From contig CAWJCZ010000008.1 in NCBI GenBank assembly GCA_963841505.1, positions 519,175 to 583,174 on the forward strand: 64,000 bases of DNA. The letters run 5' to 3'. The DNA is from an uncultured Gemmatimonadales bacterium. GTDB lineage: Bacteria; Gemmatimonadota; Gemmatimonadetes; Gemmatimonadales; GWC2-71-9. The translations under genes were made by a program, and so were the position numbers. The stretch's first letter is position 1. Every line of letters begins with the position of its first letter. Positions 9,689-64,000 of the stretch are shown in pieces. The notes beneath the pieces were generated by a model. That model was given only the letters and a program-made list of their open reading frames with translations. It was not told the origin of the DNA and searched no databases.

Positions 9689-9694
9689 GGGGAC
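9653..9694. repeat. Tandem octamer array, about 5 units (GTAGCCGG ACGGGCGG ACGGGCGG ACCGGCGG ACAGGGGG on plus strand)
   Basis: Read directly. It belongs to the same NGGCGGAC family as the arrays at 37132, 38971, 42718 and 44295 but in the opposite orientation relative to the flanking minus-strand genes. It lies between the TAG stop of the ferritin-like gene (9694-9696) and the GH38 conserved N-terminus. Confidence 0.85.
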
Positions 9695-11077
9695 TATTCC
9701 GCCAAGATGGAGAGCGGCCCGCGCTCTTCAGGGCGTAGGGCGGCCGGATGTCCTAACACGCGGCGGACCAGGTCGGTCCACCAGTCGCCCGGAGGCTCTC
9801 CGGTCCGATACCGCTCCAGCATCGGCCAGGTCTTGTCATGAATCGCTTCGCCCCGGGCCAGCGCGTCCTCCGGGTCGATCCTCTTCGTGCCGCAGCCAGC
9901 GGCGGCCGATCTGGGCGTGCAGGACTTCGTCGGCCCAGTCGTAGTCGTGGAAGTGGGCCGACAGATCATCGCCTGCCTCGACCGCGGTCCGGTATTCGAA
10001 TCGCTTCCCGGTCTCCCCCGGCATGAGCGACTGCTCGATGGCGAAGAGCAGGATCTGTCGCTCGAGCGGTGTGGCGTGGAGGTTGAGCCGGAGCGCAAAC
10101 CCGACGTTGAGCGGGATCCCGGTCCAGTCCACCCCGCGGGCCTCGAGCGCGACGCTGCCCATCATGGCGTGGCGGGTTTCGTCCCAGAGCTGCCGCGAGT
10201 AATCGAGCTGAAACTCCCAGGGCTGCTCGGGACGCTCCACCAGAATGGAGGCCATCATCTCGGGGACGTCCATTTCCAGGGTGCGCTTGGCGAGCAGGGC
10301 GAGGTTCCGCTCGTCGGCCGGCACCCGGGCATCGTTGTAGATCACGTGCGGGGGAAAATCGAACGCGTACTGTCCGGTAAACCGGTGGTCCCGCCGGGGA
10401 TGAAAGTCCGGGATGAACGGTTGTCGTGCCCGCGGGGCCGGAAGCTCCGCCGTCGGTGCGGAAGCCGGACCGGCGATGCCTCCCGCCGCATCGAGCCAGG
10501 CGCGGAGATGGTCCTGCCACTCCGTAACGACCGTGGCCTTGGGTCGATCCGCTCCGGTGAGGGCCGAGAGCGCCTGACGGCTCCACCCGAGCGCCGCCTC
10601 ATGATCCAGCAGCGCGGCCTGGAGAATGCGCCGGGTCGGCTGATCAACCAGCGGGTTACTCCGGGCCAGATGGTCGCGATACGCCGCGGCGAGGGCCTCC
10701 CGCAGCACCTGGTAGCTGCCCGCGAGGAGCTCGACATGGTCGGCGCTCCACAGAGCTTCCGCGAGCGCGCGGTCGAGGGATTCGTCCGGGGCGTGATCGA
10801 GTGGAGGAAGGGGATGCCGCATCTCGCCGATTCTCCGACGGAGGGCATCGGCGTGCAGACCGTCCTGCCACTGGTGCAGCGCGAAGCCACACTTGAGCTC
10901 CCACACGGGTTCCGCGGTCAGGTGCGACAGCAGGTCGCGCATCAACCACCGCTCGACCCACTGATAGCGGAGCAGGCGACGAACGGTCTCCTCCACCGCG
11001 AAGCCGATCCGGGCCGCGTCCTGATAGGAAGCGAGGCCGGCCAGCGGTGGAACGCCAAGGGACGGCGCTGCGCTCAT
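9694..11077 (-). pseudogene. Ferritin-like (putative di-iron) domain protein, reading frame broken once near 9870-9900
   Basis: ORF 9836..11077 (LWDETRHAMMGS..., FHDYDWADEVLHAQIGRRWL) ends in Arg/Gly-rich nonsense. ORF 9694..10098 carries a coding-like C-terminus (IDPEDALARGEAIHDKTWPMLERYRTGEPPGDWWTDLVRRVLGHP). The family assignment is weak. Confidence 0.5.
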
Positions 11078-33445: not shown

Positions 33446-33490
33446 TCTCCATCCTGTTTGGAACTGGGTGGACCTTTGTACCGCCCGTCC

Positions 33491-33664
33491 CTACGGCCTC
33501 CGCCGGATTTTCGGCTTGACTCGGGGCTTTTCCTTGCGCCCCATGTTCTCATTCACCTTGGGCGGCCCGCCGCCGGCCTGGTCCGCCTTCTTTCGTTCCA
33601 GATAGATCCGCATCGCCGCTGCAGTGGGGTCCTCGGGGGCCGGTTTTTCAGGTTTCCTTGCCAT
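33491..33664 (-). CDS. Candidate small basic protein (57 aa), hypothetical
   Basis: My own translation (below the track length cut-off): MARKPEKPAPEDPTAAAMRIYLERKKADQAGGGPPKVNENMGRKEKPRVKPKIRRRP. It lies in a GC-poorer intergenic stretch and has no clear SD. Its TAG stop is followed by one octamer-repeat unit (GGACGGGCGG). Confidence 0.25.
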   Translation of the reverse strand: MARKPEKPAPEDPTAAAMRIYLERKKADQAGGGPPKVNENMGRKEKPRVKPKIRRRP

Positions 33665-37131: not shown

Positions 37132-37171
37132 GTCCGCCCGTCCGCCCGTCCGCCCGTCCGCCCGTCCGCCC
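37132..37171. repeat. Perfect tandem octamer array (GTCCGCCC)x5, plus a partial unit running into the stop codon at 37174-37176
   Basis: Read directly. The minus strand reads TAG-AC(GGGCGGAC)n. Confidence 0.95.
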
Positions 37172-37173
37172 GT

Positions 37174-38965
37174 CTACGACTTCAGGATCCAGAAGCGCGC
37201 CTGATAGCGCCACGCGGTGTAGGCGATCCGGCCCCCATCCGGCGACACCGCCGGCTGGGTCTTGTCGGTGGAATCCCGGGTGAGTTGCGCCGGAACATTG
37301 CCGCTCGACCGGACCCGGAACAGCTGGAGCCGTCCCTGATCGTCGGGGGCGGGATAGACCAGCCACGCCCCACCCGGACCCACCCCGAATCCGTCGATCC
37401 GCTGAGGACTCTCGTACCGGTGAATCACCTGCGGCGTCCCGCCGGTACGCGCCACGCGGTAGAGCGTGTGTCCGGTCGGCGGATGGGTCGCCGAGAAGAC
37501 GATCGTGTCGCTGGAGCCGAGCCACTCGGCGTGGACTACCTCCTCGGACAAACCGGTGACCGGAACGGAACGCGCCGGGACGGTCACCCGACCGGTCTCC
37601 TGATCGACCCCCACGATCCATACCAGCGATCGGCGGCGCCCATTGATCACCGAATCGCCGTCGAACACGATCCACCGTCCGTCCGGCGACCACCGCGGCC
37701 ACCCCACCTCGGCGCCGCGGCCGAGGTTGCTGATGCGGGTTAACGGGCTATCTCGCTCGGCAGGACGGAGCCAGACGTCGTCCGAATTCTGCTGATGTGA
37801 GTGAAACGCGATCCAGCGCCGGTTGGGCGACCAGGTGATCCCCTGATCCTCCGACACGGACTGCTGGATGACTTGCTCCACTCGGGCAGCCGGCGCGTCA
37901 CCGTCCGCCGCGATGATCCCGACGTCTTGCGCGATGTCGGGGTAATGGAAATCGTCACGCACCCTGCGCCAGGTTCCGTAGGTGACGCCGAGACGGGTTC
38001 CGGTCGGGTCCCACGAAGGAGTCTCGGCTTGAAAAGCGGTGCGCTGCACGGCCGAGCCGCCTTCGGCCGGCATCACCAGCACTTCGGTTCCGTAGTCCTG
38101 ATCCTTGTAGAGGAGGGCGCCGTCCCGGCTCACCGACGGAGCGTAAGTATCCCTCGGCTCGGCGGCCATCTGGCGGCCAGCGTGCCGGCTCAGGTCCCAG
38201 GCCCAAAGCCGAACAAAGCCGCTGTCGTTGGCGAAAGCGACGTACAGCTCGCGGCCGTCGGGCGACGGGGCGACGGGACCGTAGGCCTCGCGTTCCTCGA
38301 GTCCGACAGGCACGGCATCCCCGCAGGGGAGCGTAACCCGCTGTCGACCGGCTTCCATTGCCAGGCAACCGATCCGGCCATCCGGCATCCAGAAGGGGTA
38401 GCCCACCCGGATGGTGATTGACCGAGTCGAGATTGCTCGTCCGCTCGCATCGAATTCCCAGAGTCGGGATCCCGGCGGCTGCAACTCAACTCCCGCGCCT
38501 TTGCGTCCATCCAGCGACCAGCTCAATTCACGGAGTAAGGCGGGATCCACCGAGTCGCCGGCGCTGGTCACGAGCCGAGTGTCCCTCGGGCCAGAGGGGT
38601 TGCCGGGTGCCGCGGTTCAGGTCGTAGGACCACCAGAGTACCGCGCTGTCGGGCTGGCCCAGCACCAGCGTCGTATCGTCTCGCCAGACGAGGTGCTGGA
38701 TCCGTCCGTCTCCCACCGGCAGGGAGCGCTCGGTGCCGGCCCGGAGGTCATGGATTACGAATTGGTTGGGGATGACGGTCGCCAGCCGGCGCCCGTCGGG
38801 GGAGAGCACCCCGATCGGATCGCGATACCCCACCGGCCCGGCCTGATGTATCGTCGCGACGACGGACGCGATCGGCGAGCCTGGTGCTGCCGGGCAACCG
38901 GCGAGAAGGCCGAACCAGGTGATCGCGAGGAGAAATGCCGGGTTATGGAGCGATGGCCGTCTCAT
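37174..38965 (-). pseudogene. TolB/PD40-like beta-propeller lipoprotein, reading frame broken once (38572-38618)
   Basis: The N-terminus with lipobox (MRRPSLHNPAFLLAITWFGLLAGC...) is in ORF 38528..38965. The body, with PD40-type repeats (SPDGRELY, SRDGALLY, SPNRRWIAF, SPDGRWIVF, SPDGGRIAY), is in ORF 37174..38571. Confidence 0.7.
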
Positions 38966-38970
38966 CGATG

Positions 38971-39026
38971 GTCCGCCTGTCCGCCGTCGCGCCTGTCCGC
39001 CTGTCCGCCTGTCCGCCTGTCCGCCT
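38971..39026. repeat. Tandem octamer array, 7 units (GTCCGCCT x5, GTCCGCCG, one degenerate TCGCGCCT)
   Basis: Read directly. It fills almost the whole 59-nt spacer between the kinase stop (39025-39027) and the ATG of the PD40 lipoprotein gene (38963-38965). Confidence 0.95.
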
Positions 39027-41730
39027 ATTTCCTGCCCGTGAGGCCTTGGAGCCAGTTCTCCGCCACGATCAGCTCGCTCTGCTGGGTGGCCTCGCCCTCC
39101 CGCACCATGAGAAAATGCCGGTCGTCGGGGGCGAGCGAATACAACGGAATCGGGCCAGTCTGGATGTACTGCGCGACCGAAAAGAGCGTGCGTTGCTTGC
39201 CCACGGCAAAGGTCGGACCCGGCGGAATCTGGACGTCGATCATCTCGTTCCGCCCGTTAATGTAGAAGAGCTCGCGGCCACTCTTCGCCCAGGTTGGGGC
39301 GCTGCCTCCCGCCGTGGAGACCTGCCACTTGGCGGAGGAGGTTTCCGGGAAGGGGCGCACGTAGACTTCGAATGCCCCCGATTCGTTCGAGGAGTAGGCC
39401 AGCCAGCGGCCGTCGGGCGAAAGCGCCGGGTGGAATGACTGTGCCGAGCTCGCGACCAGGGGCACGATCGTGGTGTCGGGCAGGTGCATGCCCACGATGC
39501 GGGGAGTGCCGGCACCGGGTGGTGCCGTCCGAAGGAGCAGCCACTTGCCGTCCCGGGAGCCGACCACCTGCCCGTAGTCGTCGTCCTTGGTGGCCTTGAG
39601 CAATCTGGCCGCCCCGGTACCGTCGGCGCGGTGCGCGTAGGCCGGCCCCACGCCGGACCCGGATCGGTCATTGACGTAATAGACCTCGCGACCATCCGTC
39701 GACCAGGAGGGTCGCACCGCCGAAGTATCGCCGAAGGTGATCCTGGAAAACGGCCCATCCGGAAGCTGCTTGACCCAGATGTCGCGGCGGCCGTCGCGCG
39801 CAAGGCCCACCGCGATAGCCTTCCCGTCGGGCGAAAGTGAGGTCGACTCGATGACGCCCTGTGGGTCCCACGCCGGGTCCACCGGTGTGACCCCGCCTTC
39901 CATGCTCACCCACACGGCGCGGCGGGAGACCAGCGATCCGCCCGTGCTGTACGCCAGGGTGCCATTCCCGGCCAGAGTCAGGTCGATGTTGAATCCGCCG
40001 TTTCGCATTCCCACCCCTTCGAGCAACGCGATCGGCGCACCGGTGACTTCGAGCTTTCCGGGATCGAACGGGAGGGCGATCAGCTTCCCCTCGGCGGTGA
40101 CCACCAGGAGATGACCGGTCTTCGCATAGGTCGCGTAGATCCCCCGGACCAGGGTGTGGCCCAGCTCGCGGGGTTTGGGTGGGAGCGGCGCGGCCATGAT
40201 TTCGAAATCGGAAACCCCCTGGCCGGCGTGGCGCACCCGGAAAATGACGCCTTTTCCTCTCGGGAGCAGCTGAGGCCACTCGGTCGCGATCTCGTTCTTG
40301 TCAGGGTGCACGGTGTACACCGGCTCGATCTCGCCGCCCCCGGCGCGCATCCGGGCGATTCCCGAATCCACCTCGAAGTAGATGAAGCCATCTTCGCCCC
40401 ACGTGCCCCCGGTGGTGTTCGCCTTGTCGGTCAGGGTGATGGTGGGTGCACCCGCGAGTGAAGCGATGCGAATCGCGGTCCCGCCCTTCACGAAGGCGAC
40501 ACGCTGGCCGTCCGGAGAAAAGAACGCCGTGCCTGCTCCTTCGGTACCCATCATCGGTGTGCCATCGAGCTGATCGAGCCGGCGGATCCAGAGGCGGTTT
40601 CCCCCCTCGGCGGGACCACTGTACACCAGGGTCCGCCCGTCAGGAGAAAGGGCGAGGCGCGATCCCCCGGTCGGAAGCGGCGCCTGGAGTCCCTGGTTGG
40701 TGCGAAGCCCCAGGCTGAACTGGGTGAGCGGCGCCGCTGGTGCCGACCGGCTCCAACCCCAGATCGCGGCCGCCGTCACCACGATGAGGCCGAGCAGGAG
40801 GGCCGGGACCAGGAACCGAGGCAAGCCGCGCTGCGACACCTGGGCCATCGTTGTCTGCTGGGTTCCCCCGCCAGGCACGGCGCTCGAGATTCGGTATCCC
40901 GGATTCCTGAGCGCCTCGGCGAACTCCGCCGCGGTGGCGAACCGGTCGGCCGGAAGCTTCTCCAGCGCGGTCAGCACTGCCGCCTCGATGTGGGGCGGAA
41001 TGGTGTGTCGCTGGGGGATGAGCGGCCGGGGGCTCTCGGTCACGACCCGCGCCACGATCGCCTGCGCCGTGCTTCCGGTGAACGGCGGGTCGCCGGTGAG
41101 CAATTCGTAGAGCACGACGCCGAGGGCATAGATATCCGAACGGGCGGTGATCTCCCGCTCGCCCATGGCCTGTTCGGGACTCATGTAGTGCGGGGTGCCG
41201 AGGCTCATGCCGGTTTCGGTCATCCTGGCGCCGCCTGCTTTGCTGGCGGCGAGCGCGATGCCGAAATCGGCGACCTGGGCTCGGCCGTCGTGGAGCAGGA
41301 TGTTCTCCGGCTTGATGTCGCGATGGACCACCCCATGGCGGTGGGCATAGTCGAGTGCGTCCGCCACTTCTGCTGTGATTCGCACCGCTTCGCTGACCGG
41401 GAGCTGCTTTTCCCGGGTGACGCGATCGCGGAGCGATTCACCCTCCACGAACGGCATGACGTAGAAGAGATTGCCGTCGACTTCGCCGGAATCGAACAGC
41501 GGCAGGATATGGGGGTGCTGCAGGTTGGCCGTCAGTTTGATCTCGGCCAGGAAGCGTTCCGCGCCGATGACCGCGGCCAGCTCGGGACGCAGGACCTTGA
41601 GGGCGACCCGACGGTTATGGCGCACGTCTTCGGCCAGATAGACGGTGGCCATGCCGCCGGCGCCGATTTCGCGCTCCAGGCGATACCGGTCCGCCAGCGC
41701 GGACTGCAAACGGCCGATCATTTCCGGCAT
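39025..41730 (-). CDS. Ser/Thr protein kinase fused to C-terminal TolB/PD40-like beta-propeller (paralogue of 33802..36465)
   Basis: 901-aa ORF. Its glycine loop is GAGGMATVY, with VALKVL, HRDIKPENILL, DFG and SPEQ motifs, then a TM segment and PD40-like repeats (SPDGRTLVY, SPDGQRVAF, SPDGKAIAV, STDGREVYY, SPDGRWLAY). Confidence 0.92.
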   Translation of the reverse strand: MPEMIGRLQSALADRYRLEREIGAGGMATVYLAEDVRHNRRVALKVLRPELAAVIGAERFLAEIKLTANLQHPHILPLFDSGEVDGNLFYVMPFVEGESLRDRVTREKQLPVSEAVRITAEVADALDYAHRHGVVHRDIKPENILLHDGRAQVADFGIALAASKAGGARMTETGMSLGTPHYMSPEQAMGEREITARSDIYALGVVLYELLTGDPPFTGSTAQAIVARVVTESPRPLIPQRHTIPPHIEAAVLTALEKLPADRFATAAEFAEALRNPGYRISSAVPGGGTQQTTMAQVSQRGLPRFLVPALLLGLIVVTAAAIWGWSRSAPAAPLTQFSLGLRTNQGLQAPLPTGGSRLALSPDGRTLVYSGPAEGGNRLWIRRLDQLDGTPMMGTEGAGTAFFSPDGQRVAFVKGGTAIRIASLAGAPTITLTDKANTTGGTWGEDGFIYFEVDSGIARMRAGGGEIEPVYTVHPDKNEIATEWPQLLPRGKGVIFRVRHAGQGVSDFEIMAAPLPPKPRELGHTLVRGIYATYAKTGHLLVVTAEGKLIALPFDPGKLEVTGAPIALLEGVGMRNGGFNIDLTLAGNGTLAYSTGGSLVSRRAVWVSMEGGVTPVDPAWDPQGVIESTSLSPDGKAIAVGLARDGRRDIWVKQLPDGPFSRITFGDTSAVRPSWSTDGREVYYVNDRSGSGVGPAYAHRADGTGAARLLKATKDDDYGQVVGSRDGKWLLLRTAPPGAGTPRIVGMHLPDTTIVPLVASSAQSFHPALSPDGRWLAYSSNESGAFEVYVRPFPETSSAKWQVSTAGGSAPTWAKSGRELFYINGRNEMIDVQIPPGPTFAVGKQRTLFSVAQYIQTGPIPLYSLAPDDRHFLMVREGEATQQSELIVAENWLQGLTGRK

Positions 41731-41800
41731 GTGGTGTCTTGGGTTTGGATGGTTGAAGATGGGGGTGGCGGCGCCGTGCGGCTAGGGGCGCTAGGCCGCC

Positions 41801-41835
41801 GGACTATTGTTCAGCGATGACCGCGGAATCCTCCA
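41801..41835. repeat. 35-nt block conserved upstream of both kinase paralogues (copy 2)
   Basis: See 36507..36541. Here the embedded ATG opens only an 8-codon ORF (ATGACCGCGGAATCCTCCAGGCTGTGA). Confidence 0.7.
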
Positions 41836-41848
41836 GGCTGTGAAAACG

Positions 41849-42712
41849 ATGACTGCTCTGCTGTTCCTCGCCGGGTTGTTTGCCCACCTGACTCCGACCA
41901 GCCGCTGGAACGACGCCGACTGGCAGGTGCTCGACGCCAAGGTCCGCTGGGCCGCCCGCGGGCGACTGGAAACCCTTCCGATCGGAGCGGCCATTGCCCG
42001 GCTGGGACAGAGTTTCGTCGGGGCGGTCTACACTCCGGGAACCCTCGAGCCGGCGGGACCCGAACGAGTGGTGGTGAACCTCCAGGCATTCGATTGTGTC
42101 ACTTTCATTGAAAACGTTCTGGCGCTGACCCGGTTCATTCGGGAGGATGGGGTTTCCGCGCTGGCGGACCGGCCGGCCGCCGAGGCGAGATACGTTCGGT
42201 ACCTGGAGGACCTTCGCTATCGGGGCGGGCGACTCGATGGCTACCCGAGCCGCCTGCACTACTTCTCCGAATGGTTGAGGGATAATGCGGGTCGCGGGCG
42301 TCTCCGGCTGTTGACCCGGGAGCTCGGTGGGGTTCCCGATTCCGAACCCCTGAGCTTCATGTCACGCCATCCCGGATCCTACCGCCAGATGGCGGAGCCT
42401 GGGATAGCAGAAGCGATCGGGGCTGTGGAAACGCGCCTCAACCAGGACCTGCCGCGGTGGTACATCCCGGAGTCAGCCATCGCCACGGTCGAGAACCGGA
42501 TCGAGGATGGGGATCTGATCGCGGTGACTTCCACCCTGCCGGGTCTCGACATCGCCCATACCGGCATTGCACTGTGGGTGAATGGCCGGCTCCACCTTCT
42601 GCATGCACCGCTGGTCGGCAAATCGGTTGAGATTTCCTCGGTGCCCCTGGCCGAGCGGATCGCGGGGATTGCCACTCAGGACGGCATCATGGTGGCCCGG
42701 GTGATTCACTGA
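41849..42712 (+). CDS. DUF1460-family protein (amidase-like fold), secreted
   Basis: The track ORF 41807..42712 is trimmed to ATG 41849 (MTALLFLAGLFAHL signal). The block FDCVTFIENVLAL is typical of DUF1460 as I recall it. Confidence 0.65.
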   Translation: MTALLFLAGLFAHLTPTSRWNDADWQVLDAKVRWAARGRLETLPIGAAIARLGQSFVGAVYTPGTLEPAGPERVVVNLQAFDCVTFIENVLALTRFIREDGVSALADRPAAEARYVRYLEDLRYRGGRLDGYPSRLHYFSEWLRDNAGRGRLRLLTRELGGVPDSEPLSFMSRHPGSYRQMAEPGIAEAIGAVETRLNQDLPRWYIPESAIATVENRIEDGDLIAVTSTLPGLDIAHTGIALWVNGRLHLLHAPLVGKSVEISSVPLAERIAGIATQDGIMVARVIH

Positions 42713-42717
42713 CCCCT

Positions 42718-42749
42718 GTCCGCCGGTCCGCCGGTCCGCCTGTCCGCCC
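42718..42749. repeat. Tandem octamer array, 4 units (GTCCGCCG x2, GTCCGCCT, GTCCGCCC)
   Basis: Read directly. It occupies the convergent spacer between the TGA at 42710-42712 (plus-strand gene) and the TAG at 42749-42751 (M14 peptidase). Confidence 0.95.
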
Positions 42750-45700
42750 TATTTCTCGTCGAGCTTTCGTCCCACATTCAGGTTGTCGAAGTGCATGATG
42801 GTGTTGAGCACCAGCGGGTAGCTTCCGATCGTTTCGCCCCGCCACATCGGATTGATCGCGAAGAGCACGACGTGCCCCTTGTCCTTCGGCGCGTCCACCA
42901 CGATGGGCCGCTCCGCGATCTCGCTGCCGCCATCGAGCAATCCCGACACCAGGAGATCCCGTTGCGCGCTGAACCGGAGCGCCACCCGGGGACGCTGATC
43001 CGGCGGAATGATGTTGATGGGATTCCGGAGCTGATCGTTGGTGAGCGGCACCCGTTCCCATTGTTCCGCCGTCGGCCGAGCCGGCAGCTCGAACTCGGGC
43101 GTGAGTGCGGGCCGTCCCTGCACCACATCGGGATCGTCCTGGGTTCCCCTCCCGGTGGGCCGGGAGTTGGACCCGCCGAACCGGCCGCCCCGGCCGCCGC
43201 CCAGCGTGTTACCGACCGAAAGACTCGACCCGTCATCGCTGTACACCGCCAGGCTGTCGCCGACGCCGTACACGATTGGGCTCGTCGCATCCACGATTCG
43301 AGAGCGGAGCAGGGTGCCCACGACCCGGGAACGGCCTGGCCCGTTGGTCGAAACCCCGCTGGCGAGTCCATACTGGACTGCGAGTTCCGCGGTGTTCGCG
43401 ACGCCGACCAGCACGCCACCCTGGGACACGAACCGCTGGAGATTGGCCAGGCCGGTCCATCCTAACCCGGGGCGCACGTCGTCGGTCTGGGCCCAGGTCC
43501 CGAGGTTCGGGGTTTCCGGGGTGTTCTTCCAGGGCATCGGATTCCGCCACATCGGGAGGCCCTGCACGATGGTCTGAAGGCCCCCGCCCGCCGGGGGAAA
43601 GAGGATCACGTCGTATTTCGCATTCAGGTTGTCGTTCTTTGCGACCTCCTGGGTACTGATGTAGTCGAACGGGATGCTCAGGAAGTCGAACGCCTGCCGC
43701 CACCAGCCTTCGGTCTGGGTGCCGAGCCAGGTGTGCAGTATGGCGACCCGGGCCGCCCGCACCGGGTGGGTCTTCACCGTGGGCGCCGTGGCCAGTCCGT
43801 ACCCGGTCAACCCAAGCTCTCTGGTCGCTCGATCCAGATCACTCGCCCCGACCCCGCGGATCAGGAACGTCCCGCGGGCAAATTTCTTCCCCGCCGCCTC
43901 GAACGGTTCTTCGGCAGACTGGATGTCGGCGTCCTTGAGCCGGTAGCGGAGCGTCGCGAGGGCGTTGTCGCCGTTGGCATTGATGGCGACCACGCTCCCG
44001 CTGCCCTGCACGCTACCCGGCGGATTCACCGGACCGCTGATCGCCGTCACCGGCACGCGAAGCACCGTGGTGTCGGTCACCCGGAGCGCCTCGACCGCGA
44101 ATCCCTCCGGGAAGGTCCAGCCGGTGTCATCGTAGGGCGTCTTCTGGGGATCGTCCGGAGCCCAGTACTGGTAGTCGAGCAGCGCGTCCGCGATGCGGGA
44201 GTAGGGCTGGTCCATCCGGATGATGTACGACCCGGCCGGGAAGCTCTTCGACTCGGTCTTCTTCGCGGTATCGGCCTTCACCGCGGTACTGTCGGTCCGC
44301 CGGTCCGCCGGTCCGCCGGTCCGTCGCTTCACCGCCACCTGCACCGTAAACGGAGCATTCGCGCGCGAGATCTCCACGTGCTGCTTCTGGAGGATCCGAA
44401 GCAGCTCCGCCTGGGCCCCGGGCCGGCGGGTTTCCCCGGTCAGGACATAGGCGGCGGGGCCTTCGGTATGCGCCTTGAGCACCGAGCGCTTGCTCTTCTG
44501 GTAGAAGTTCCTGAGGATGAGCTCCTTGTTCTGGGCGATGTAACTGAGTGAGACCAGCAGGCCGGTCTGCTCGTAGTTGTTGTTATTGCGGAGCGACCAC
44601 TTGACCCGGGGCAGCGGGGGATTCTGGCGGTACCAGGTGCGCGAGGTTTCCCCGGGAGAGAGGGTGCGTTCCAGGGTCTCCGCGCTGCCGCCGTTCCCGA
44701 AGGTTTCGTAGAGCCGGCTGATCCCATTGTGAGTTGCGGCCATGAACATGAGGTAGCCGGGCGACCAGGTATCGAAATTCCCGAAGGCAAAAACCCCGGG
44801 CATCCCCATCCGGGTCATCTCCTGCACGTTGTTCCAGCCGATCATCTGCCACTCGTTGGTCAGCAGCGGATCCACCCATGCGTTGTAGGGACCGTCGCCG
44901 ATGGTGTTGTCGTAGAGGTAGGCGACCGATTCATGCAGATCGTGAATCACCTGCGCCTTCCAGTCCACGTAGGTGTTCAGCACGTTCTGGGTCAGCTTCA
45001 GCGTCATCCCCATCGCGTCGCGATTGTTGTCGTGCGCGACGTAGTGCCCCCAGTAGATCAGGTTGGGCCAGGTATCGTCGGGATGGGCCTTGTGCCAGTT
45101 GTAGATGTCCACCACCCGGTCGCGCCCATCCACCTCGACGATCGGCGTGATCAGCGTGATGACCTTATCGCGGATGTTCTTGAGGTACGGACTTTCGTCC
45201 ACCGCGAGACGGTAGGCCAGCTCCATCAGAGCGGTGGGGGCGCCGGCTTCGGGAGAGTGGATCGTGCCGGTGATGTAATACACCGGCGCCGCCGTCGCCG
45301 CGATCCGGGCCGCCTCGGCGTCGTTCATGTTGATGGTCCGCGGGTCGGCCAGCCGGGCGAGGTCCGCCTTGTTGGCATCGAGGCGGGCCATCAGCGCCTC
45401 CGAGGCCACCGCCACCGCGATCATCTCGCGATTCTCTTCGGTGCGCCCGATCGAATAGACCCGCACTCGCGGGCTCGCCTTGGCGAGCCGTCGCATGTAG
45501 TCGTACACCTCGGTGGAATAGGGAAGCTTGCCCGGCGCCCCGGCGATGTCCCCCAGGACCACCGTCGGGGTCGGCACCGTCTTGGAGGCCGGTAAATAGT
45601 TGACCAGGGGAGAGAGGAAGAAGGGTTCGGTGGTGTACTCCAGGATCTTCTTGGTGTACGCCTCGTCGATTGGCTGACTCGGACTCCGGCCCGGCACGAC

Positions 45701-45769
45701 CGGGGATTGGGCGGCCACCGTGGAAGTCGTGAGGAGAAGGACCGCGAGAAGTGGGCGTGACGGGTTCAT
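42749..45769 (-). CDS. M14-family zinc carboxypeptidase-like protein, large secreted form
   Basis: The real start is MNPSRPLLAVLLLTTSTVAAQ (ATG 45769). M14-like blocks are YSIGRTEENREMIAV, ITGTIHSPEAG, DNNRD and IHDLHES. It has a long C-terminal extension. Confidence 0.8.
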   Translation of the reverse strand: MNPSRPLLAVLLLTTSTVAAQSPVVPGRSPSQPIDEAYTKKILEYTTEPFFLSPLVNYLPASKTVPTPTVVLGDIAGAPGKLPYSTEVYDYMRRLAKASPRVRVYSIGRTEENREMIAVAVASEALMARLDANKADLARLADPRTINMNDAEAARIAATAAPVYYITGTIHSPEAGAPTALMELAYRLAVDESPYLKNIRDKVITLITPIVEVDGRDRVVDIYNWHKAHPDDTWPNLIYWGHYVAHDNNRDAMGMTLKLTQNVLNTYVDWKAQVIHDLHESVAYLYDNTIGDGPYNAWVDPLLTNEWQMIGWNNVQEMTRMGMPGVFAFGNFDTWSPGYLMFMAATHNGISRLYETFGNGGSAETLERTLSPGETSRTWYRQNPPLPRVKWSLRNNNNYEQTGLLVSLSYIAQNKELILRNFYQKSKRSVLKAHTEGPAAYVLTGETRRPGAQAELLRILQKQHVEISRANAPFTVQVAVKRRTGGPADRRTDSTAVKADTAKKTESKSFPAGSYIIRMDQPYSRIADALLDYQYWAPDDPQKTPYDDTGWTFPEGFAVEALRVTDTTVLRVPVTAISGPVNPPGSVQGSGSVVAINANGDNALATLRYRLKDADIQSAEEPFEAAGKKFARGTFLIRGVGASDLDRATRELGLTGYGLATAPTVKTHPVRAARVAILHTWLGTQTEGWWRQAFDFLSIPFDYISTQEVAKNDNLNAKYDVILFPPAGGGLQTIVQGLPMWRNPMPWKNTPETPNLGTWAQTDDVRPGLGWTGLANLQRFVSQGGVLVGVANTAELAVQYGLASGVSTNGPGRSRVVGTLLRSRIVDATSPIVYGVGDSLAVYSDDGSSLSVGNTLGGGRGGRFGGSNSRPTGRGTQDDPDVVQGRPALTPEFELPARPTAEQWERVPLTNDQLRNPINIIPPDQRPRVALRFSAQRDLLVSGLLDGGSEIAERPIVVDAPKDKGHVVLFAINPMWRGETIGSYPLVLNTIMHFDNLNVGRKLDEK
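44295..44326. repeat. Octamer array inside the M14 coding sequence: (GTCCGCCG)x3 plus degenerate GTCCGTCG
   Basis: Read directly. The three perfect units (24 nt) stay in frame, and the array region encodes RRTGGPADRRTD in the minus-strand gene. Confidence 0.9.
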
Positions 45770-45809
45770 GAAGCGATATCCGGGAAAGCGGTGAAAGACC
45801 AAGGAAATC

Positions 45810-47102
45810 TCAGCGGGACTGCCGCCGCCGAGCGACCAGCAGAACCTGGATCTCATCGGGGCGGGCATTGACGAAGTCGACTCGCACGCGGCCGTCGGGA
45901 AGAATCGACACGGTGCCGGGGATACTGCTGTGGGTGAGGTACCATCCGGCTGGAAGCACCACGGCGTTGGTGGGGCGACCGAACCCGCGATCCCAGATCA
46001 GCTCGTCGCCCTCGACGCGGTAACGGACCGAGTCGGTGTAGGTCTCCGCGATCCGGAGCCGGGTGCTCTGTCCCCGCTTCACGGCGGGGAACCGGATCAC
46101 CACCACCTCGGTCTCGGGTTTGACCGGCTCACCGATGTCGAGTTTGGCCGCCGAGATCGCATCGCCTTTGAGCGTCTCGACGGTTAGCGGCTCGCCGGTA
46201 TCCAGGATGAGGGCAGAAGGATTGCTGGCGGTGCTCCCCGCCCGTACCACATTGAGATACTTGTCCACGCCCTCACGGGTCTCGGTGTAGTCGTGATAGA
46301 GATCGAAGGTGTGGGTTTCCGGCTGGCGCAGGAAATACACGATGTCCCGGGTCTGGGTGGCCCGCTCGGAGAGCCGGTTGCGGAGCGTCGCTGACGTAGC
46401 AGCCGGGGCGGTGGCGGCCGCCGCCGATGGCCGCGCCCGGATCAGGAGCGACGCGGCGTCGGGGCCGGCGTTGATAAAGCTGATCATGACCCGCCCATCC
46501 GGCTCCCGGAGAACCTGGGATGGAACGTTGACGCTGGCCAGCTCATAACCCGCAGGCAGGACCACCCCGTTCCGCTTGATGCCCAGCGAACGGCGGAAGA
46601 CCAGCTCGTCGCCCTCCTGGAAATAGCTGGCCGGATCGGTGTAGGTCTTGTCGATCAGGATCCGCTGCACCCCGTCCTTCGGCACCGGGTGGGCCAGCTC
46701 GACCCGGATGTAATGACTCCCGGTGTCTGCCCGGGCCAGCCCGCTGGCCTGGGCAGTCCGCCCGTCGATCTCCTCGAAGTGAAGCGGGGCGCCGCTGGCC
46801 TGGTCGCGCACCGATTCGTCGCTCGCGATGCTGCCCTTCCGGATCGGATTGAAGAAGTAGCGCGCGCCCGGCGTGGTGGCCCAGACCTCGTAGAGGATCC
46901 GGAACTTGCCGCTGCCCGGAGCCAGCAGCTCGTACCGGGTGTATTCGCCGGCCGGAGCTTCTGGGCCTGGAGCGGCGGGCCGGCAGAATACGCCGTCAGG
47001 AGGGAGGAGCGGGAGCGTGAAACGATGCATGGGGGTGACGCAGTGAGATGGGGAGAAGATGCGGCGGACGTCGTCCCCCGCCGCTAGCCCCAGTCCACGC
47101 AT
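45810..47102 (-). CDS. Hypothetical protein with internal two-fold duplication
   Basis: 430-aa ORF (an alternative start is ATG 47030, MHRFTLPLL). The halves share GDELVFRRSLGIKRNGVVLPAGYELASVNVPSQVLREPDGRVMISFINAGPD and GDELIWDRGFGRPTNAVVLPAGWYLTHSSIPGTVSILPDGRVRVDFVNARPD. Confidence 0.6.
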   Translation of the reverse strand: MRGLGLAAGDDVRRIFSPSHCVTPMHRFTLPLLPPDGVFCRPAAPGPEAPAGEYTRYELLAPGSGKFRILYEVWATTPGARYFFNPIRKGSIASDESVRDQASGAPLHFEEIDGRTAQASGLARADTGSHYIRVELAHPVPKDGVQRILIDKTYTDPASYFQEGDELVFRRSLGIKRNGVVLPAGYELASVNVPSQVLREPDGRVMISFINAGPDAASLLIRARPSAAAATAPAATSATLRNRLSERATQTRDIVYFLRQPETHTFDLYHDYTETREGVDKYLNVVRAGSTASNPSALILDTGEPLTVETLKGDAISAAKLDIGEPVKPETEVVVIRFPAVKRGQSTRLRIAETYTDSVRYRVEGDELIWDRGFGRPTNAVVLPAGWYLTHSSIPGTVSILPDGRVRVDFVNARPDEIQVLLVARRRQSR

Positions 47103-48965: not shown

Positions 48966-51403
48966 CCTCGGTCCGCGAAGCCTACGAATCCATGGCGTGG
49001 GGACCGGCGCCCGAGTCGCCCGCGCAGGCGCAGGCGTGGATCGAGCAGCACGGGCGCACGTTCGGGAATTACCTGAACGGCGCCTGGGTGCCCGGGACTT
49101 CCCACTTCGGGGTGATCAACCCCGCCACCAGGGAAGAGCTCGCGCGGGTGGCGGAGGCCGGCAAGGCCGAGGTGGATGCCGCGGTGGCCGCGGCGCGCGC
49201 GGCCCAGAAAGCCTGGTCGGCCCTGGGCGGACACGGACGGGCCCGGTGGCTCTACGCCCTCGCCCGGGAAGTGCAGCGCAACGCGCGGCTCTTCGCGGTG
49301 GTCGAGTCACTCGACAATGGAAAGCCGATCCGGGAATCCCGCGACATCGACATCCCGCTGGTGGCCCGCCACTTCTATTACCATGCCGGGTGGGCCCAGC
49401 TCATGGAGACCGAGCTCGCGGGTTATGAGCCGGTGGGGGTCGTCGGCCAGATCATTCCATGGAATTTCCCCCTGCTCATGCTGGCCTGGAAGATCGCCCC
49501 GGCCCTCGCGACCGGAAACACGGTGGTCCTCAAGCCCGCCGAGTTTACTCCGCTCACCGCGCTGCTCTTTGCCGACTGCTGCCATACCATCGGTCTGCCG
49601 CCCGGGGTGGTGAACATCCTCACCGGCGACGGCACCACCGGTGCCCTGCTGGTCGATCATCCCGGGCTGGACAAGATCGCGTTCACCGGGTCCACCGACG
49701 TGGGCCGGATCATCCGGACCGCGACGGCCGGGAGCGGCAAACGACTGTCGCTCGAGCTGGGCGGCAAGTCGCCCTTCATCGTGTTCGAGGATGCCGATCT
49801 CGACAGCGTGGTCGAGGGCGTGGTGGACGCGATCTGGTTCAACCAGGGCCAGGTCTGCTGCGCCGGCTCCCGGATCCTCGCGCAGGAAGGCATCGCCACC
49901 CGGCTGGTCGAAAAGCTCCGGAATCGCATGGAGACGCTCCGGGTCGGGTCTCCGCTCGACAAATCGGTGGACATCGGGGCGATCGTCGCCCCGGTCCAGC
50001 TCGAGCGGATTGAATCCCTCGTCAAGCAGGGCGTCGAAGAAGGCGCCACCTGCTGGCAGCCCAGCTGGAGCTGCCCCACTGAGGGGCTGTTCTATCCTCC
50101 GACGCTGTTCACCGATGTGGCGCCCGCCGCGACGATCGCGCAGGTCGAGATCTTCGGACCGGTCGTGGTGCTGATGACGTTCCGGACCCCGGGCGAAGCG
50201 GTCGAGATCGCCAACAACACGCGCTATGGCCTCGCGGCCAGCGTGTGGAGCGAGAACCTCAACACCGCGCTCGATGTTGCCCCCGAGCTCAAGGCCGGGA
50301 CCGTGTGGGTCAACTGTACCAACATGTTCGATGCGGCAAGTGGATTCGGCGGATACCGGGAATCCGGGTACGGGCGGGAGGGCGGGCTCGAGGGACTGTG
50401 GGAGTACGTGCGGATGGGAAGATTGGAGGATAGGAAGATGGGAAGAGAGGACGCCCCGCCATCTGCCCATCCTCCTATCCTCCCATCCTCCCGTCCTCCT
50501 ATCCTCCCATCCTCCCATCCTCCTATCCTCCCATCCTCCCATCCTCCCATCCTCCCTCCCATCGACCGCACCCCCAAGCTCTACATCGGCGGGAAGCAGG
50601 TCCGTCCCGATGCGACCTACACCATCCCGATTCACGACAGCGCGGGGAAACTGCTCGCTGAAATACCTCGCGGGAACCGCAAGGATGTCCGGAACGCGGT
50701 GGAAGCCGCGCGTCAGGCGGCATCCTCATGGGGCAAGGCCACCGCGCACACCCGTGCTCAGGTTCTCTACTATTTCGCCGAGAACCTGGCCGTCCGGGAA
50801 AAGGAATTCACCGATCGGCTGGCGTCTTTGGCGGCGCACTCCCCCTTCGCGCCGGCGGCTGAAGTCGCCGGGTCGATCCAGCGCGCCTTCTACTATGCCG
50901 CGTGGGCCGACAAATACGACGGGCGGGTCCACCACACCCCGTTTCGCAATGTGACGCTTGCGATGAACGAGCCGATCGGGGTGCTGGGCCTGGTCGCCCC
51001 GGAGGAGTCGGGACTGCTTGGCTTCCTTTCTCTCGTGCTCCCCGCTATCGCCATGGGCAATACCGTGGTGACGATTCCTTCGAGTCGAGTGCCGGTGCTG
51101 GCCACGGATCTGTACCAGGTATTCGACACCTCGGACGTGCCCGGCGGCGTGATCAACATCGTGACGGGAGCTCGCCAGGAGCTTGTCCCGGTGCTCGCCG
51201 CGCACGACGATGTCGATGGCATCTGGCTGTTCGGATCCCGCGAGGAAGTCACCGAGGTCGAGAAGCTCTCCGCCGGCAACATGAAGCGGACCTGGGCGGA
51301 ATGGGAATCACGCGACTGGTCCGACCCTCACGAGGGGCAGGGCGGGGAATTCCTTCGCGAGGCGACCCAGGTCAAGAACATCTGGGTCCCCTACGGCGCC
51401 TAG
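48962..51403 (+). CDS. Two-domain aldehyde dehydrogenase: a complete ALDH (catalytic Cys) fused through a repeat-encoded Pro-rich linker to an ALDH-like N-terminal/NAD-domain module
   Basis: This is the in-frame part of track ORF 47048..51403, starting MTSVREAYES. Domain 1 has IIPWNFPLLM, ELGGKSP and NQGQVCCAGSR. The linker is ...HPPILPSSRPPILPSSHPPILPSSHPPILPP. Domain 2 (IDRTPKLYIGGKQVRPD...) is ALDH-like but I see no catalytic Cys block. Confidence 0.8.
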   Translation: MTSVREAYESMAWGPAPESPAQAQAWIEQHGRTFGNYLNGAWVPGTSHFGVINPATREELARVAEAGKAEVDAAVAAARAAQKAWSALGGHGRARWLYALAREVQRNARLFAVVESLDNGKPIRESRDIDIPLVARHFYYHAGWAQLMETELAGYEPVGVVGQIIPWNFPLLMLAWKIAPALATGNTVVLKPAEFTPLTALLFADCCHTIGLPPGVVNILTGDGTTGALLVDHPGLDKIAFTGSTDVGRIIRTATAGSGKRLSLELGGKSPFIVFEDADLDSVVEGVVDAIWFNQGQVCCAGSRILAQEGIATRLVEKLRNRMETLRVGSPLDKSVDIGAIVAPVQLERIESLVKQGVEEGATCWQPSWSCPTEGLFYPPTLFTDVAPAATIAQVEIFGPVVVLMTFRTPGEAVEIANNTRYGLAASVWSENLNTALDVAPELKAGTVWVNCTNMFDAASGFGGYRESGYGREGGLEGLWEYVRMGRLEDRKMGREDAPPSAHPPILPSSRPPILPSSHPPILPSSHPPILPPIDRTPKLYIGGKQVRPDATYTIPIHDSAGKLLAEIPRGNRKDVRNAVEAARQAASSWGKATAHTRAQVLYYFAENLAVREKEFTDRLASLAAHSPFAPAAEVAGSIQRAFYYAAWADKYDGRVHHTPFRNVTLAMNEPIGVLGLVAPEESGLLGFLSLVLPAIAMGNTVVTIPSSRVPVLATDLYQVFDTSDVPGGVINIVTGARQELVPVLAAHDDVDGIWLFGSREEVTEVEKLSAGNMKRTWAEWESRDWSDPHEGQGGEFLREATQVKNIWVPYGA
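50412..50555. repeat. Inverted octamer arrays: 5 G-rich units (GGATGGGA AGATTGGA GGATAGGA AGATGGGA AGAGAGGA, 50412-50451), a 16-nt spacer, then 11 C-rich units (YRTCCTCC, 50468-50555)
   Basis: Read directly. The two arms are largely complementary (a 22-nt stretch pairs 20/22). The array lies inside the ALDH reading frame. Confidence 0.9.
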
Positions 51404-62629: not shown

Positions 62630-62648
62630 CGCGCCGGGAGTTTACCCT

Positions 62649-62683
62649 CCGTTACCCGCCCCATTGTAACGGGCGGGTAACGG
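62649..62683 (-). other. 13-bp intercistronic hairpin between pstS and pstC
   Basis: CCGTTACCCGCCC (62649-62661) pairs with GGGCGGGTAACGG (62671-62683) around a 9-nt loop. No U-tract follows on the sense strand. Confidence 0.6.
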
Positions 62684-62695
62684 ATGGGTAACAGG

Positions 62696-63775
62696 TCAGC
62701 TGATTGGTGCGCCCGCCGCTTTGAGCGTTTTGATGCGCTCCTGCTCCAGAGATACGACCGATTTTGGAAGCGGGGCGTAGTGGAGCTGCTGCGCCATGGC
62801 TTGTGCGCTGTCGGTCACCATCCATTCCAGGAACGTCTTGATGGCCCGCGCCTTGGATCCATCCGGCATGTCCGGATGGATGAGAAGCCAGGTGAACGAC
62901 GCGATGGGATAGGCGTCGGGGCCGCCCGCATTGGTGATCGAGACCCGGAAGTCGGTGTCCGGAGCAAACTCGGCGCTGGCGGCGGCGGCGGAAACCGACT
63001 CCAACGATGGCGCGATGAAATGATCTTCCCGGTTCTTGACCTGGGCGTACGGAAGGTTGTTGGAGATCGCGTAGATCAATTCCACGTATCCCAGCGATCC
63101 TTCGGACTGCTTGACCTGCTGGGTGACCCCCTCGTTGCCCTTGCCGCCCAGTCCCACTGGCCAGTTGACCGCGGTGCTGGCGCCCACCTTCGACTTCCAT
63201 TCCGGGTCGATCTTGGAGAGGTAATCGGTGAACACAAAGCTGGTTCCCGAGCCGTCCGAACGATGCACCACGATGATGTCGGTGTTGGGGAGCTTGGCAC
63301 CCGGGTTCATGGTCCTGATCCGCGGGTCGTTCCACTTGGTGATCTTCCCGAGGAAGATGGCCGAGATGGTCGGCCCATCGAACTTGAGGGGGGTGGTTCC
63401 CAGGGCCGGGACGTTGTAGGTGATGACCACGGCGCCCAGCACGGTCGGAAAATGCAGGACCTGCCCCTGAACCGCGGCCATCTGGTCGGCGTTCATGGGG
63501 GAATCGCTGGCGCCGAAGTCCACCGTGCCTTCGGTGAACTGTTTGATGCCGCCCCCCGACCCAATCGACTGGTAGTTGATCTCGACCCCGGTCTTCTGGG
63601 CGTACTCCGCGAACCATCGCTTGTAGATCGGATCCGGGAACGTGGCGCCCGCGCCGGTGAGCCGCATCGTCCCGGTGCTGACTGCCGTGCTGTCGCCGGA
63701 CCCTCCACTCGCTCCCTTCCCGCCACAGCCGATCAGAAGGAGTGCCGCTCCGAAGCCCACGAGTCTGCGAGTCAT
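62696..63775 (-). CDS. pstS: Phosphate ABC transporter substrate-binding lipoprotein PstS
   Basis: 359-aa ORF with lipobox LLIGCGG. PstS blocks are GAGATFP.PIY.RW, YQSIGSGGGI, DFGASDSPM and RSDGSGTSF.F. Confidence 0.93.
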   Translation of the reverse strand: MTRRLVGFGAALLLIGCGGKGASGGSGDSTAVSTGTMRLTGAGATFPDPIYKRWFAEYAQKTGVEINYQSIGSGGGIKQFTEGTVDFGASDSPMNADQMAAVQGQVLHFPTVLGAVVITYNVPALGTTPLKFDGPTISAIFLGKITKWNDPRIRTMNPGAKLPNTDIIVVHRSDGSGTSFVFTDYLSKIDPEWKSKVGASTAVNWPVGLGGKGNEGVTQQVKQSEGSLGYVELIYAISNNLPYAQVKNREDHFIAPSLESVSAAAASAEFAPDTDFRVSITNAGGPDAYPIASFTWLLIHPDMPDGSKARAIKTFLEWMVTDSAQAMAQQLHYAPLPKSVVSLEQERIKTLKAAGAPIS

Positions 63776-63783
63776 ACGGCTCC

Positions 63784-64000
63784 TCAGAAAGTGAATTGCA
63801 CCTGGAACAGGGCCTGGGACCGCACCGCCTCGAGCGCGGGGCTGGGAGTCCCGCCCTGATAGACGAGATGATCGAGGTCCGCGAGCACGCGCACGTTGGG
63901 GGCGAGTTGGTAGCCGACCCCACCGATCCAGCGGGTATTCGCATCGTTGTCGACCCGGGTGCTCGGATCGACCCGGTCCATTCGGGCGATGAGCTGCACT
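63784..64000 (-). CDS. Outer-membrane beta-barrel porin, C-terminal fragment (possibly phosphate-selective OprO/OprP-like); the gene runs off the right edge
   Basis: The C-terminus ...RSQALFQVQFTF has an alternating beta-strand pattern and a terminal Phe. It lies immediately upstream of pstS. Only about 70 residues are visible. Confidence 0.45.
   Translation of the reverse strand, partial: VQLIARMDRVDPSTRVDNDANTRWIGGVGYQLAPNVRVLADLDHLVYQGGTPSPALEAVRSQALFQVQFTF

Follow-up and report, generated by a model that had tools for sequence, protein, structure and literature searches.

Stop-anchored tandem octanucleotide arrays in a Gemmatimonadales genome and their relatives

Why should a gene end in a tandem repeat that begins almost at its stop codon? 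The question is raised by 64,000 nucleotides of DNA from an uncultured Gemmatimonadales bacterium (contig CAWJCZ010000008.1, positions 519,175 to 583,174; this whole stretch is called the window below), in which three minus-strand genes each end in a TAG that touches a period-8 array of direct repeats. We detected repeats in the window with Tandem Repeats Finder (TRF), read gene ends from the raw sequence and took protein domains from Pfam. On the plus strand the arrays have the form (GTCCGCCN)n, and the mRNA across all three gene ends reads TAG-(NGGCGGAC)n. The three arrays are:

37132-37174, minus strand: array 1, 5.4 copies, 100% match, TRF unit GTCCGCCC, sense unit GGGCGGAC
38971-39026, minus strand: array 2, 7.0 copies, 92% match, sense unit AGGCGGAC
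42718-42748, minus strand: array 3, 3.9 copies of GGCGGACN, directly 3' of the M14 peptidase TAG

TRF and the raw sequence agree on these places, as had a first-pass annotation made from the letters alone, and the three-unit pattern GTCCGCCNGTCCGCCNGTCCGCC, found nine times in the window, was absent from each of 100 dinucleotide-preserving shuffles. A CTA, the complement of TAG, abuts each array (37174-37176, 39025-39027 and 42749-42751), and the Pfam domains agree with the names given earlier to the three genes (PD40, kinase and M14). Array 1 starts 3 nt past the TAG of the PD40 gene (37174-38571) and covers only the 43 stop-proximal nt of a 186-nt convergent spacer. Array 2 contains one degenerate 9-mer among its units (GTCGCGCCT), and its first unit lines up in register with the AG of the kinase TAG; the kinase gene (39025-41730) carries Pkinase and PD40 domains, and the array fills the 59-nt intergenic spacer up to 5 nt from the ATG (38965) of a co-directional lipoprotein gene. 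Array 3 makes up 31 of the 36 nt separating the convergent stops of the M14 gene (42749-45868, Peptidase_M14) and an AmiA-like gene (TGA at 42710-42712). The array units are free of stop codons in every frame, and they are contiguous, without spacers, in keeping with the earlier statement that these are not CRISPR.

We sought GTCCGCCNGTCCGCCNGTCCGCC in species-representative genomes and obtained at least 120 loci (single loci are given L numbers below). About 72 of the matches listed come from some 50 metagenome-assembled genomes (MAGs) of Gemmatimonadota/Gemmatimonadales, with contigs of up to 3.7 Mb, and the remaining listed loci belong mostly to Streptomyces, Kitasatospora and other high-GC bacteria; all counts of GGCGGAC-family arrays given below refer to these listed matches. 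The window itself is Gemmatimonadales-like, since an aldehyde dehydrogenase (ALDH)-like protein encoded in it is 68-70% identical over ~800 residues to the products of three Gemmatimonadales MAG loci. For the test of stop-codon anchoring, each array was oriented as GGCGGAC, and we scored coding-like open reading frames (ORFs) of at least 100 codons ending between -15 and +4 nt from the array start. In 29 of 79 testable Gemmatimonadota arrays the G-rich strand was that of the mRNA at the stop (NGGCGGAC on the sense strand), while the opposite arrangement, in which the ending gene has the C-rich strand as its sense strand, was seen in 2 of 75 (Fisher p = 4e-8), so the non-random placement proposed at the outset stands. 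Array-to-stop distances in the 29 anchored cases ranged from -4 to +15 nt and were mostly -2 to +5. The same procedure applied to the non-Gemmatimonadota loci (Streptomyces and others) gave 5 versus 3 of 49; the bias is therefore specific to the lineage and not made by the method. Nor is the anchoring a by-product of short spacers, because the array 1 spacer measures 186 nt and in many listed loci more than 90 nt of non-coding DNA remain past the array.

At L191, both genes of a convergent pair are trailed by an array, and in each case the sense strand of the gene is the G-rich one; thus, array orientation follows the genes and not the replication fork. This observation rules out a primase-related or other replication-linked origin, which we had grouped (as primase site, Chi or FtsK-orienting polar sequence) with the idea that the arrays are assembly artefacts. 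The latter has one locus to recommend it: the L118 contig opens (1-200) with a long near-perfect palindrome, whose arms hold arrays as well as non-repeat flanks and which is probably a contig-end assembly artefact, so that loci of this kind need caution. A sequencing read, however, is longer than these arrays of 30-60 nt, which turn up again in ~50 independent MAGs, megabase contigs included. For these two reasons they are not artefacts, and the pair of explanations together has a negligible probability.

The first-pass annotation had gone further and tied the arrays to TAG, taken to be the minority stop of a high-GC genome. TAG is no such rarity here, as it ends 14 of the window's 42 rough gene calls (TGA 24, TAA 4) and 161 of 469 calls, or 34%, in the related loci (TGA 232, TAA 76; 949 kb). 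Three TAGs out of three in the window corresponds to p ~0.04, and 11 further TAG-ending genes of the window have no array. The stops before GGCGGAC-family arrays were TAG in 16, TGA in 11 and TAA in 2 cases (p = 0.017); with the window's three cases removed, TAG accounted for 13 of 26 (p = 0.07), and post-stop arrays of other 7/8-mer units used stops at background frequency. TAG is not required. In several arrays the G of TAG doubles as the first G of the unit (TA/GGCGGAC), and we ascribe the mild TAG excess to this sharing. A generally G-rich context after stops, which might have seeded the arrays, was ruled out, given that G and C both stand at ~0.32 over positions +1 to +60 in genes without arrays.

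These counts also bear on the notion of a TAG-specific readthrough, recoding or release-factor signal, or of a Shine-Dalgarno mimic by which the ribosome would stay tethered as it terminates. Besides the three window cases, the similarity of GGCGG to GGAGG and the halt of array 2 at 5 nt before an ATG would suit such a signal. Yet TGA and TAA are used as well, the C-terminus and stop position of M14 orthologues are conserved with no extension, and duplexes of the arrays with a generic anti-Shine-Dalgarno tail were weaker than those of composition-matched shuffles (mean z = +1.1). The duplex energies exclude the Shine-Dalgarno mimic, and we regard this whole group of explanations as highly unlikely.

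A sample independent of the repeat was provided by 80 orthologous M14 loci (68-79% protein identity), drawn from metagenomes by protein and not by repeat. In these loci and the window (949 kb), arrays with a period of 6-10 and at least 2.8 copies fell after stops in 22-24 cases and before starts in 1-3, with a further 16 elsewhere between genes and 50 within genes (mostly 9-mers); the last two counts are approximate, as the gene map, based on GC content at third codon positions, is rough and recovers ~55-60% of expected genes. Periods of 8 and 7 predominated in the loci studied, and the mean sense-strand composition of post-stop arrays was G 0.47, C 0.20, A 0.22 and T 0.10. The M14 C-terminus, ...LD(E/A)(K/R) followed by the stop, is kept across the 80 orthologues together with the stop position, which identifies the stop as ancestral. 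The units found after it differ widely and include GACGCAAA, GGACGCTA/GACGCTAW, GNGGGCCR, GGACGGWC, GCYTGGG, GGTYGRG and 9-mers, meaning that the array position persists while unit sequence and copy number change between lineages. Post-stop arrays are concentrated in the clade nearest the window (76-79% protein identity), and other M14 lineages have canonical hairpin-plus-T-tract terminators in their place. The synteny of the kinase/PD40 operon was not conserved in the M14 loci, so they supply no second orthologous series.

This turnover speaks to whether the repeats are binding sites for a sequence-specific protein or RNA, such as a GGCGGAC regulator or a CsrA-like GGA binder acting on mRNA 3' ends or on DNA. 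Consistent with a binder, the GGCGGAC-type unit family predominates in the window, with five arrays, GGA is present in each unit of that family, and similar proposals have been made for TAACTGA repeats (PMC4679880) and for repeat families of Geobacter (PMC2700814). On the other hand, orthologous gene ends bear unrelated units, single MAGs hold several unrelated 7/8-mer families, many units lack GGA or GG, and a spacing of 8 bp does not match one helical face of DNA. We therefore consider binding sites improbable.

The arrays form a lineage-wide class of stop-anchored, purine-strand-polar, fast-turning tandem repeats of 7-8 nt, which are also tolerated in protein loops. As to their origin, we lean, with moderate confidence, towards long simple-sequence repeats generated by slippage, corresponding in Gemmatimonadales to the GGGNATC repeats known from Xanthomonas and Nostoc. 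On this account, replication slippage would create and resize the arrays, which would be retained only where an 8-nt step is harmless, i.e., at the first nucleotides after a stop or, as multiples of three units, in protein loops. The 3' untranslated region (UTR) of the transcript would then open with a tract rich in G, poor in C and free of Watson-Crick structure, and where the unit is GGCGGACN the tract could fold into weak two-tetrad G-quadruplexes (G4s). Rho would load poorly on such a tract, which might plausibly hinder 3'-to-5' exonucleases or the ribosome as it terminates. A partner array would turn it into a long stem-loop; window arrays 1-3 would represent the unpaired form and would not themselves be terminators.

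Several tandem and 3'-end repeat systems are known from other bacteria. Cyanobacteria have short tandemly repeated repetitive sequences (STRR), tandem heptanucleotides whose families occupy dozens of sites. The repetitive extragenic palindromes and bacterial interspersed mosaic elements (REP/BIME) of enterobacteria are found in 3' UTRs, within operons and at their ends; REP is an imperfect palindrome of a conserved 35-40-nt sequence, mobilised by REP-associated tyrosine transposases (RAYT). Liang, Rudd and Deutscher are said to have found in 2015 that the terminating ribosome is hindered by REPs lying no more than ~15 nt from a stop codon. The window arrays differ from REP/BIME in being direct repeats without self-complementarity, and their flanks are unrelated between copies.

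The closest precedent lies in the G-rich heptamers GGGNATC and GGGGA(C/T)T of Xanthomonas and Nostoc, which are over-represented in non-coding DNA, transcribed, able to form G4s in vitro and of no known function (Rehm et al. 2015, PMC4692102). They also occur inverted, vary greatly in length and sequence at the same site between close relatives and are unlinked to mobile elements or gene classes (PMC4692102). The Gemmatimonadales arrays resemble them in being head-to-tail and G-rich (period 8, 92-100% match, 3.9-7 copies, sense strand 50-60% G), in the positional rule near stops, which is found across Gemmatimonadota (29/79 versus 2/75 among the matches listed, and 22-24 versus 1-3), and in variation at a single site, as seen at the 80 M14 gene ends and at an ALDH linker in three genomes. 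They differ in belonging to another phylum, in an 8-nt unit with GG in place of GGG or GGGG, from which only two-tetrad G4s are possible and predicted, in their tighter anchoring, mostly -2 to +5 nt from the stop, and in that Gemmatimonadales sister lineages use units incapable of G4. A second Xanthomonas rule, by which the G-rich strand is antisense just upstream of ORFs, was not clearly reproduced (5 versus 6 and 11 versus 8, with unreliable start calls).

More broadly, large high-GC genomes contain long simple-sequence repeats (LSSRs) of 5-11-nt units, most of them heptamers, which were described by Mrazek, Guo and Shah (2007; summaries in PMC4679880 and PMC4692102); according to these summaries the authors proposed polymerase slippage with a ruler of ~7 nt, the step of 7-8 nt being the DNA segment held by the polymerase. 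Our arrays share with LSSRs their non-coding location, tandem arrangement and unit lengths that are not multiples of three, here predominantly 8 and 7. In contrast, LSSRs, as the available summaries present them, are a statistical category without a positional rule, and Gemmatimonadota are not among the genomes that those summaries describe. Geobacter metallireducens has tandem hepta- and octanucleotide families at dozens of intergenic and intragenic sites, some paired on opposite strands at variable distance; they are like ours in unit length and number of sites, but were read as regulator sites, some tied to insertion sequence (IS) elements, with no stop anchoring reported (PMC2700814). The octamer thus extends a known and functionally unexplained class of bacterial repeats, with a close published precedent, to a new phylum, and the observation made in Xanthomonas and Nostoc now reaches a third, unrelated high-GC lineage. 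We found no paper that gives the exact repeat strings and no literature joining Gemmatimonadota, tandem repeats and stop codons, and Rfam returned no family at the gathering threshold in the whole window, nor at E <= 1 in 36.9-43.0 kb. Gemmatimonadota abound in soil, their molecular genetics is almost non-existent, and a repeat class that marks ~5% of gene ends under a strict strand rule offers a cheap handle on transcript ending and decay.

The window also contains further arrays and remnants of this kind:

9656-9694, G-rich strand plus: array in the opposite orientation, 4.6 copies, C-rich in the minus-strand mRNA
33480-33493, minus strand: ~1.5 degenerate units GGACGGGCGG, past the TAG that ends a 57-aa ORF
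44293-44323, minus strand: GGCGGACN-family array inside the M14 ORF, 3.9 copies, translated
50412-50556, plus strand: inverted octamer pair of another family, with a degenerate GGAWGRKN arm at 50412-50451 and CCCATCCT, 11.4 copies, at 50466-50556

Many arrays are accompanied by an inverted copy. A partner lay 1-131 nt downstream in 35 of 82 GGCGGAC-family arrays and upstream in none, and among pairs with a clear skew, counted over all unit types and both sets of loci, the purine- or G-rich arm came first in 24 of 24. Ordinary post-stop hairpins were purine-first in 112 cases versus 85 (81 versus 96 in intragenic controls); this weak bias rules out purine-first order as a general trait of post-stop hairpins and makes the strict rule specific to the arrays. 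Paired inverted arrays look like palindromic elements, and they are the chief reason to think of a mobile element or its footprint, be it a miniature inverted-repeat transposable element (MITE), REP/RAYT, an integron attC-like site or the 8-bp duplications of target sites that repeated transposon insertion and excision leave behind. Two observations could be added in its favour: at L027 (1012-1462) a cassette-like, AT-richer segment of ~340 bp lies between a GGCGGAC array that follows a stop and a GTCCGCC array of 10 units, and in Geobacter octamer pairs are tied to IS elements (PMC2700814). However, neither flanks nor inter-array loops are conserved between copies, 7-mers and 9-mers behave alike, and no transposase or integrase gene adjoins the window arrays (RAYT was not sought genome-wide). 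The window arrays also lack terminal inverted repeats, as had been noted at first, and target duplications around them. A mobile origin is accordingly very improbable.

Arrays 1-3 belong to the unpaired form, having no inverted partner and no self-complementarity. Their sense RNA folded no better than shuffles (z = +1.3, +0.5 and +0.8), and no terminator-like hairpin or T-tract was found at the three window gene ends, results which together rule out a hairpin or intrinsic terminator at arrays 1-3. The paired array at 50400-50549, by comparison, does fold (RNA z = -6). The suggestion that the arrays sit where a terminator hairpin normally would was not borne out more widely either, as the gene downstream of an array was co-directional in 19 cases and convergent in 14, against a background of 158 and 95. 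Given this lack of convergent enrichment, and given that array 2 ends 5 nt before an ATG, the arrays are not obligate terminators. Those 5 nt leave no room for a promoter, which would place array 2 inside a polycistronic transcript; if the lipoprotein gene is co-transcribed, as its layout would imply, array 2 must itself be transcribed.

Quadruplex folding, raised speculatively at the start, is possible on computational grounds. The quadruplex model of ViennaRNA predicted two-tetrad G4s (GG-N-GG-NNN-GG-N-GG) in each window array, with a gain of only 1-6 kcal/mol over the alternatives, and a published analogue exists; the antisense RNAs were almost unstructured (-8 kcal/mol over 60-70 nt). But the property is not general, since orthologous post-stop units without GG tracts, GACGCAAA and GACGCTAA among them, occupy the same place. 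The anchoring and strand polarity hold for units that cannot form G4s, which argues that it is these two features, and not G4 potential, that call for explanation.

How does the slippage reading fare against these results? A number of points weigh against it. By itself, slippage accounts neither for arrays that begin at the stop despite more than 90 nt of further non-coding DNA behind them, nor for the strict purine-first polarity. G4 formation is not the common denominator of the class, more distant M14 orthologues carry no post-stop arrays, and only ~5% of genes have such arrays. The functional steps set out above are all ones that we infer, and the lack of enrichment at convergent junctions is as compatible with a neutral by-product as with a function. 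Moreover, a near-identical strain in which copy-number polymorphism might be seen was sought by exact matches to five window proteins, and none was found.

The main rival to slippage tolerated at harmless sites is, indeed, a non-adaptive by-product of a mutational bias linked to transcription and translation, without any cellular role. Repeats would expand right after the stop, where the nascent RNA loses its ribosomes and a G-rich non-template strand, displaced in an R-loop, would promote slippage. This single scheme would cover the anchoring, the polarity, the arbitrary units, the fast turnover and the scarcity of pre-start arrays, and it agrees with the background ratio of co-directional to convergent neighbours, the low share of genes with arrays and the entry of arrays into any tolerant coding loop. 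Against it, all that it says of R-loops and mutation rates is conjecture, Actinobacteria, which are also high in GC, show no stop anchoring, so that a lineage-specific factor would still be required, and arrays have stayed at the M14 stop within a clade of only 76-79% protein identity, which suggests either maintenance or a very stable hotspot. We hold it to be possible, if on the unlikely side.

A third idea, and a doubtful one, is that the stop-anchored purine-rich 7-8-mer arrays constitute a functional, sequence-independent 3'-end module of Gemmatimonadales, which sets mRNA stability or the behaviour of the terminating ribosome. A ribosome-adjacent, Rho-refractory tract capable of G4 or hairpin formation would open the 3' UTR; its homogeneity might be due to a repeat-generating process peculiar to the lineage, which would work with a 7-8-nt ruler and be tied to the place where transcription and translation come apart. 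Were this so, the uniform purine-first order (24 of 24) and the persistence of position would reflect selection on form and not on sequence.

Retention in protein loops, the other harmless site allowed by the slippage reading, is illustrated by the array at 44293-44323. Its unit is that of arrays 1-3, and its translation contradicts the earlier view that the repeats have no coding capacity. The array is read as ..RRTGGPADRRTD.. / ..KRRTGGPADRRTDS.., with GGPADRRT corresponding to exactly three units in frame, and it falls within a hypervariable loop of M14 in which orthologues hold at least 12 different 7/8-mer arrays. Among orthologues L121-L165 this surface loop ranges from ~15 to ~90 residues in length, and its arrays, ~1530-1620 nt into the gene, include GTGCGGCA x8, GCGCGGG x8.7 and TCCCCAG x4.9. 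The arrays lie after stops or in mid-protein with the frame kept, and not in the 5' coding region or promoter as do the simple-sequence repeats of phase variation.

The inverted pair at 50412-50556 is likewise translated: it encodes the whole interdomain linker, RMGRLEDRKMGRED...PSAHPPILPSSRPPILPSS..., of a two-domain ALDH-like fusion ORF (~49000-51403, ~800 aa), between a complete ALDH domain and a second one that opens like an ALDH N-terminus (KLYIGGKQ). In three Gemmatimonadales MAGs the orthologues have different arrays at this linker; those of L100 and L101 are GGCGGAC/GTCCGCC and GCGGCAGA arrays. The layout, with a G-rich array after domain 1 and a C-rich array before domain 2, is that of the intergenic spacer L080, which suggests, from sequence comparison, that two genes were joined across a repeat spacer that had no stop codons and came to form the seam. 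Stop-free arrays may in this way supply low-complexity linkers and gene fusions.

Two weaker sites had been listed alongside the arrays. The remnant after the TAG at 33491 was confirmed in position but amounts to only ~1.5 degenerate units; it is possibly an array seed, on weak evidence. The array of inverted orientation said to follow the TAG of a ferritin-like gene does lie next to that TAG (9694-9696); the gene is DUF455-like and apparently frameshifted, and the array fills the ~40-nt gap up to the N-terminal HTHWD motif of a GH38 gene and reaches the 5' end of that gene. ORF 9836-11077 of the DUF455 (ferritin-like) gene (9694-11077, minus strand) ends ...HAQIGRRWLRHEE, and a protein-like tail, ..WPMLERYRTGEPPGDWW.., runs on in another frame to the TAG at 9694, so that the gene appears frameshifted. 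In the GH38 alpha-mannosidase (9607-9700, minus strand) the conserved N-terminal motif YTFHLIPHTHWDREW precedes the first canonical start (TTG 9607); no ATG, GTG or TTG occurs between the preceding in-frame stop and the motif, and the C-rich array occupies the expected start position. The gene may use a non-canonical start (CTG?), it may be disrupted, or the sequence may contain an error. For annotation, arrays account for odd ORF extensions and missing start codons in Gemmatimonadales genomes.

The lipoprotein gene beyond array 2 (MRRPSLHNPAFLLAITWFGLLAGC..., with a signal peptide and an LAGC lipobox) lacks a canonical Shine-Dalgarno sequence at 38963-38971 (minus strand), and the nearest similar string before its ATG is the GGCGG of the final array 2 unit, 7 nt upstream. 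In Actinobacteria (L004, L010, L036, L095, L099 and other Streptomyces/Kitasatospora loci), GGCGGACN arrays reach 15 units. A different type of repeat, of ~11 nt, is present in the window at 62640-62700 (minus strand) after the TGA of the gene at 62696-64000; it is pyrimidine-first (CCTGTTACC/CATCCGTTACC/CGCCCGTTAC) and so departs from the purine-first rule of the 7/8-mers, and an inverted copy, GGCGGGTAACGG, follows it just before the ATG of the next gene.

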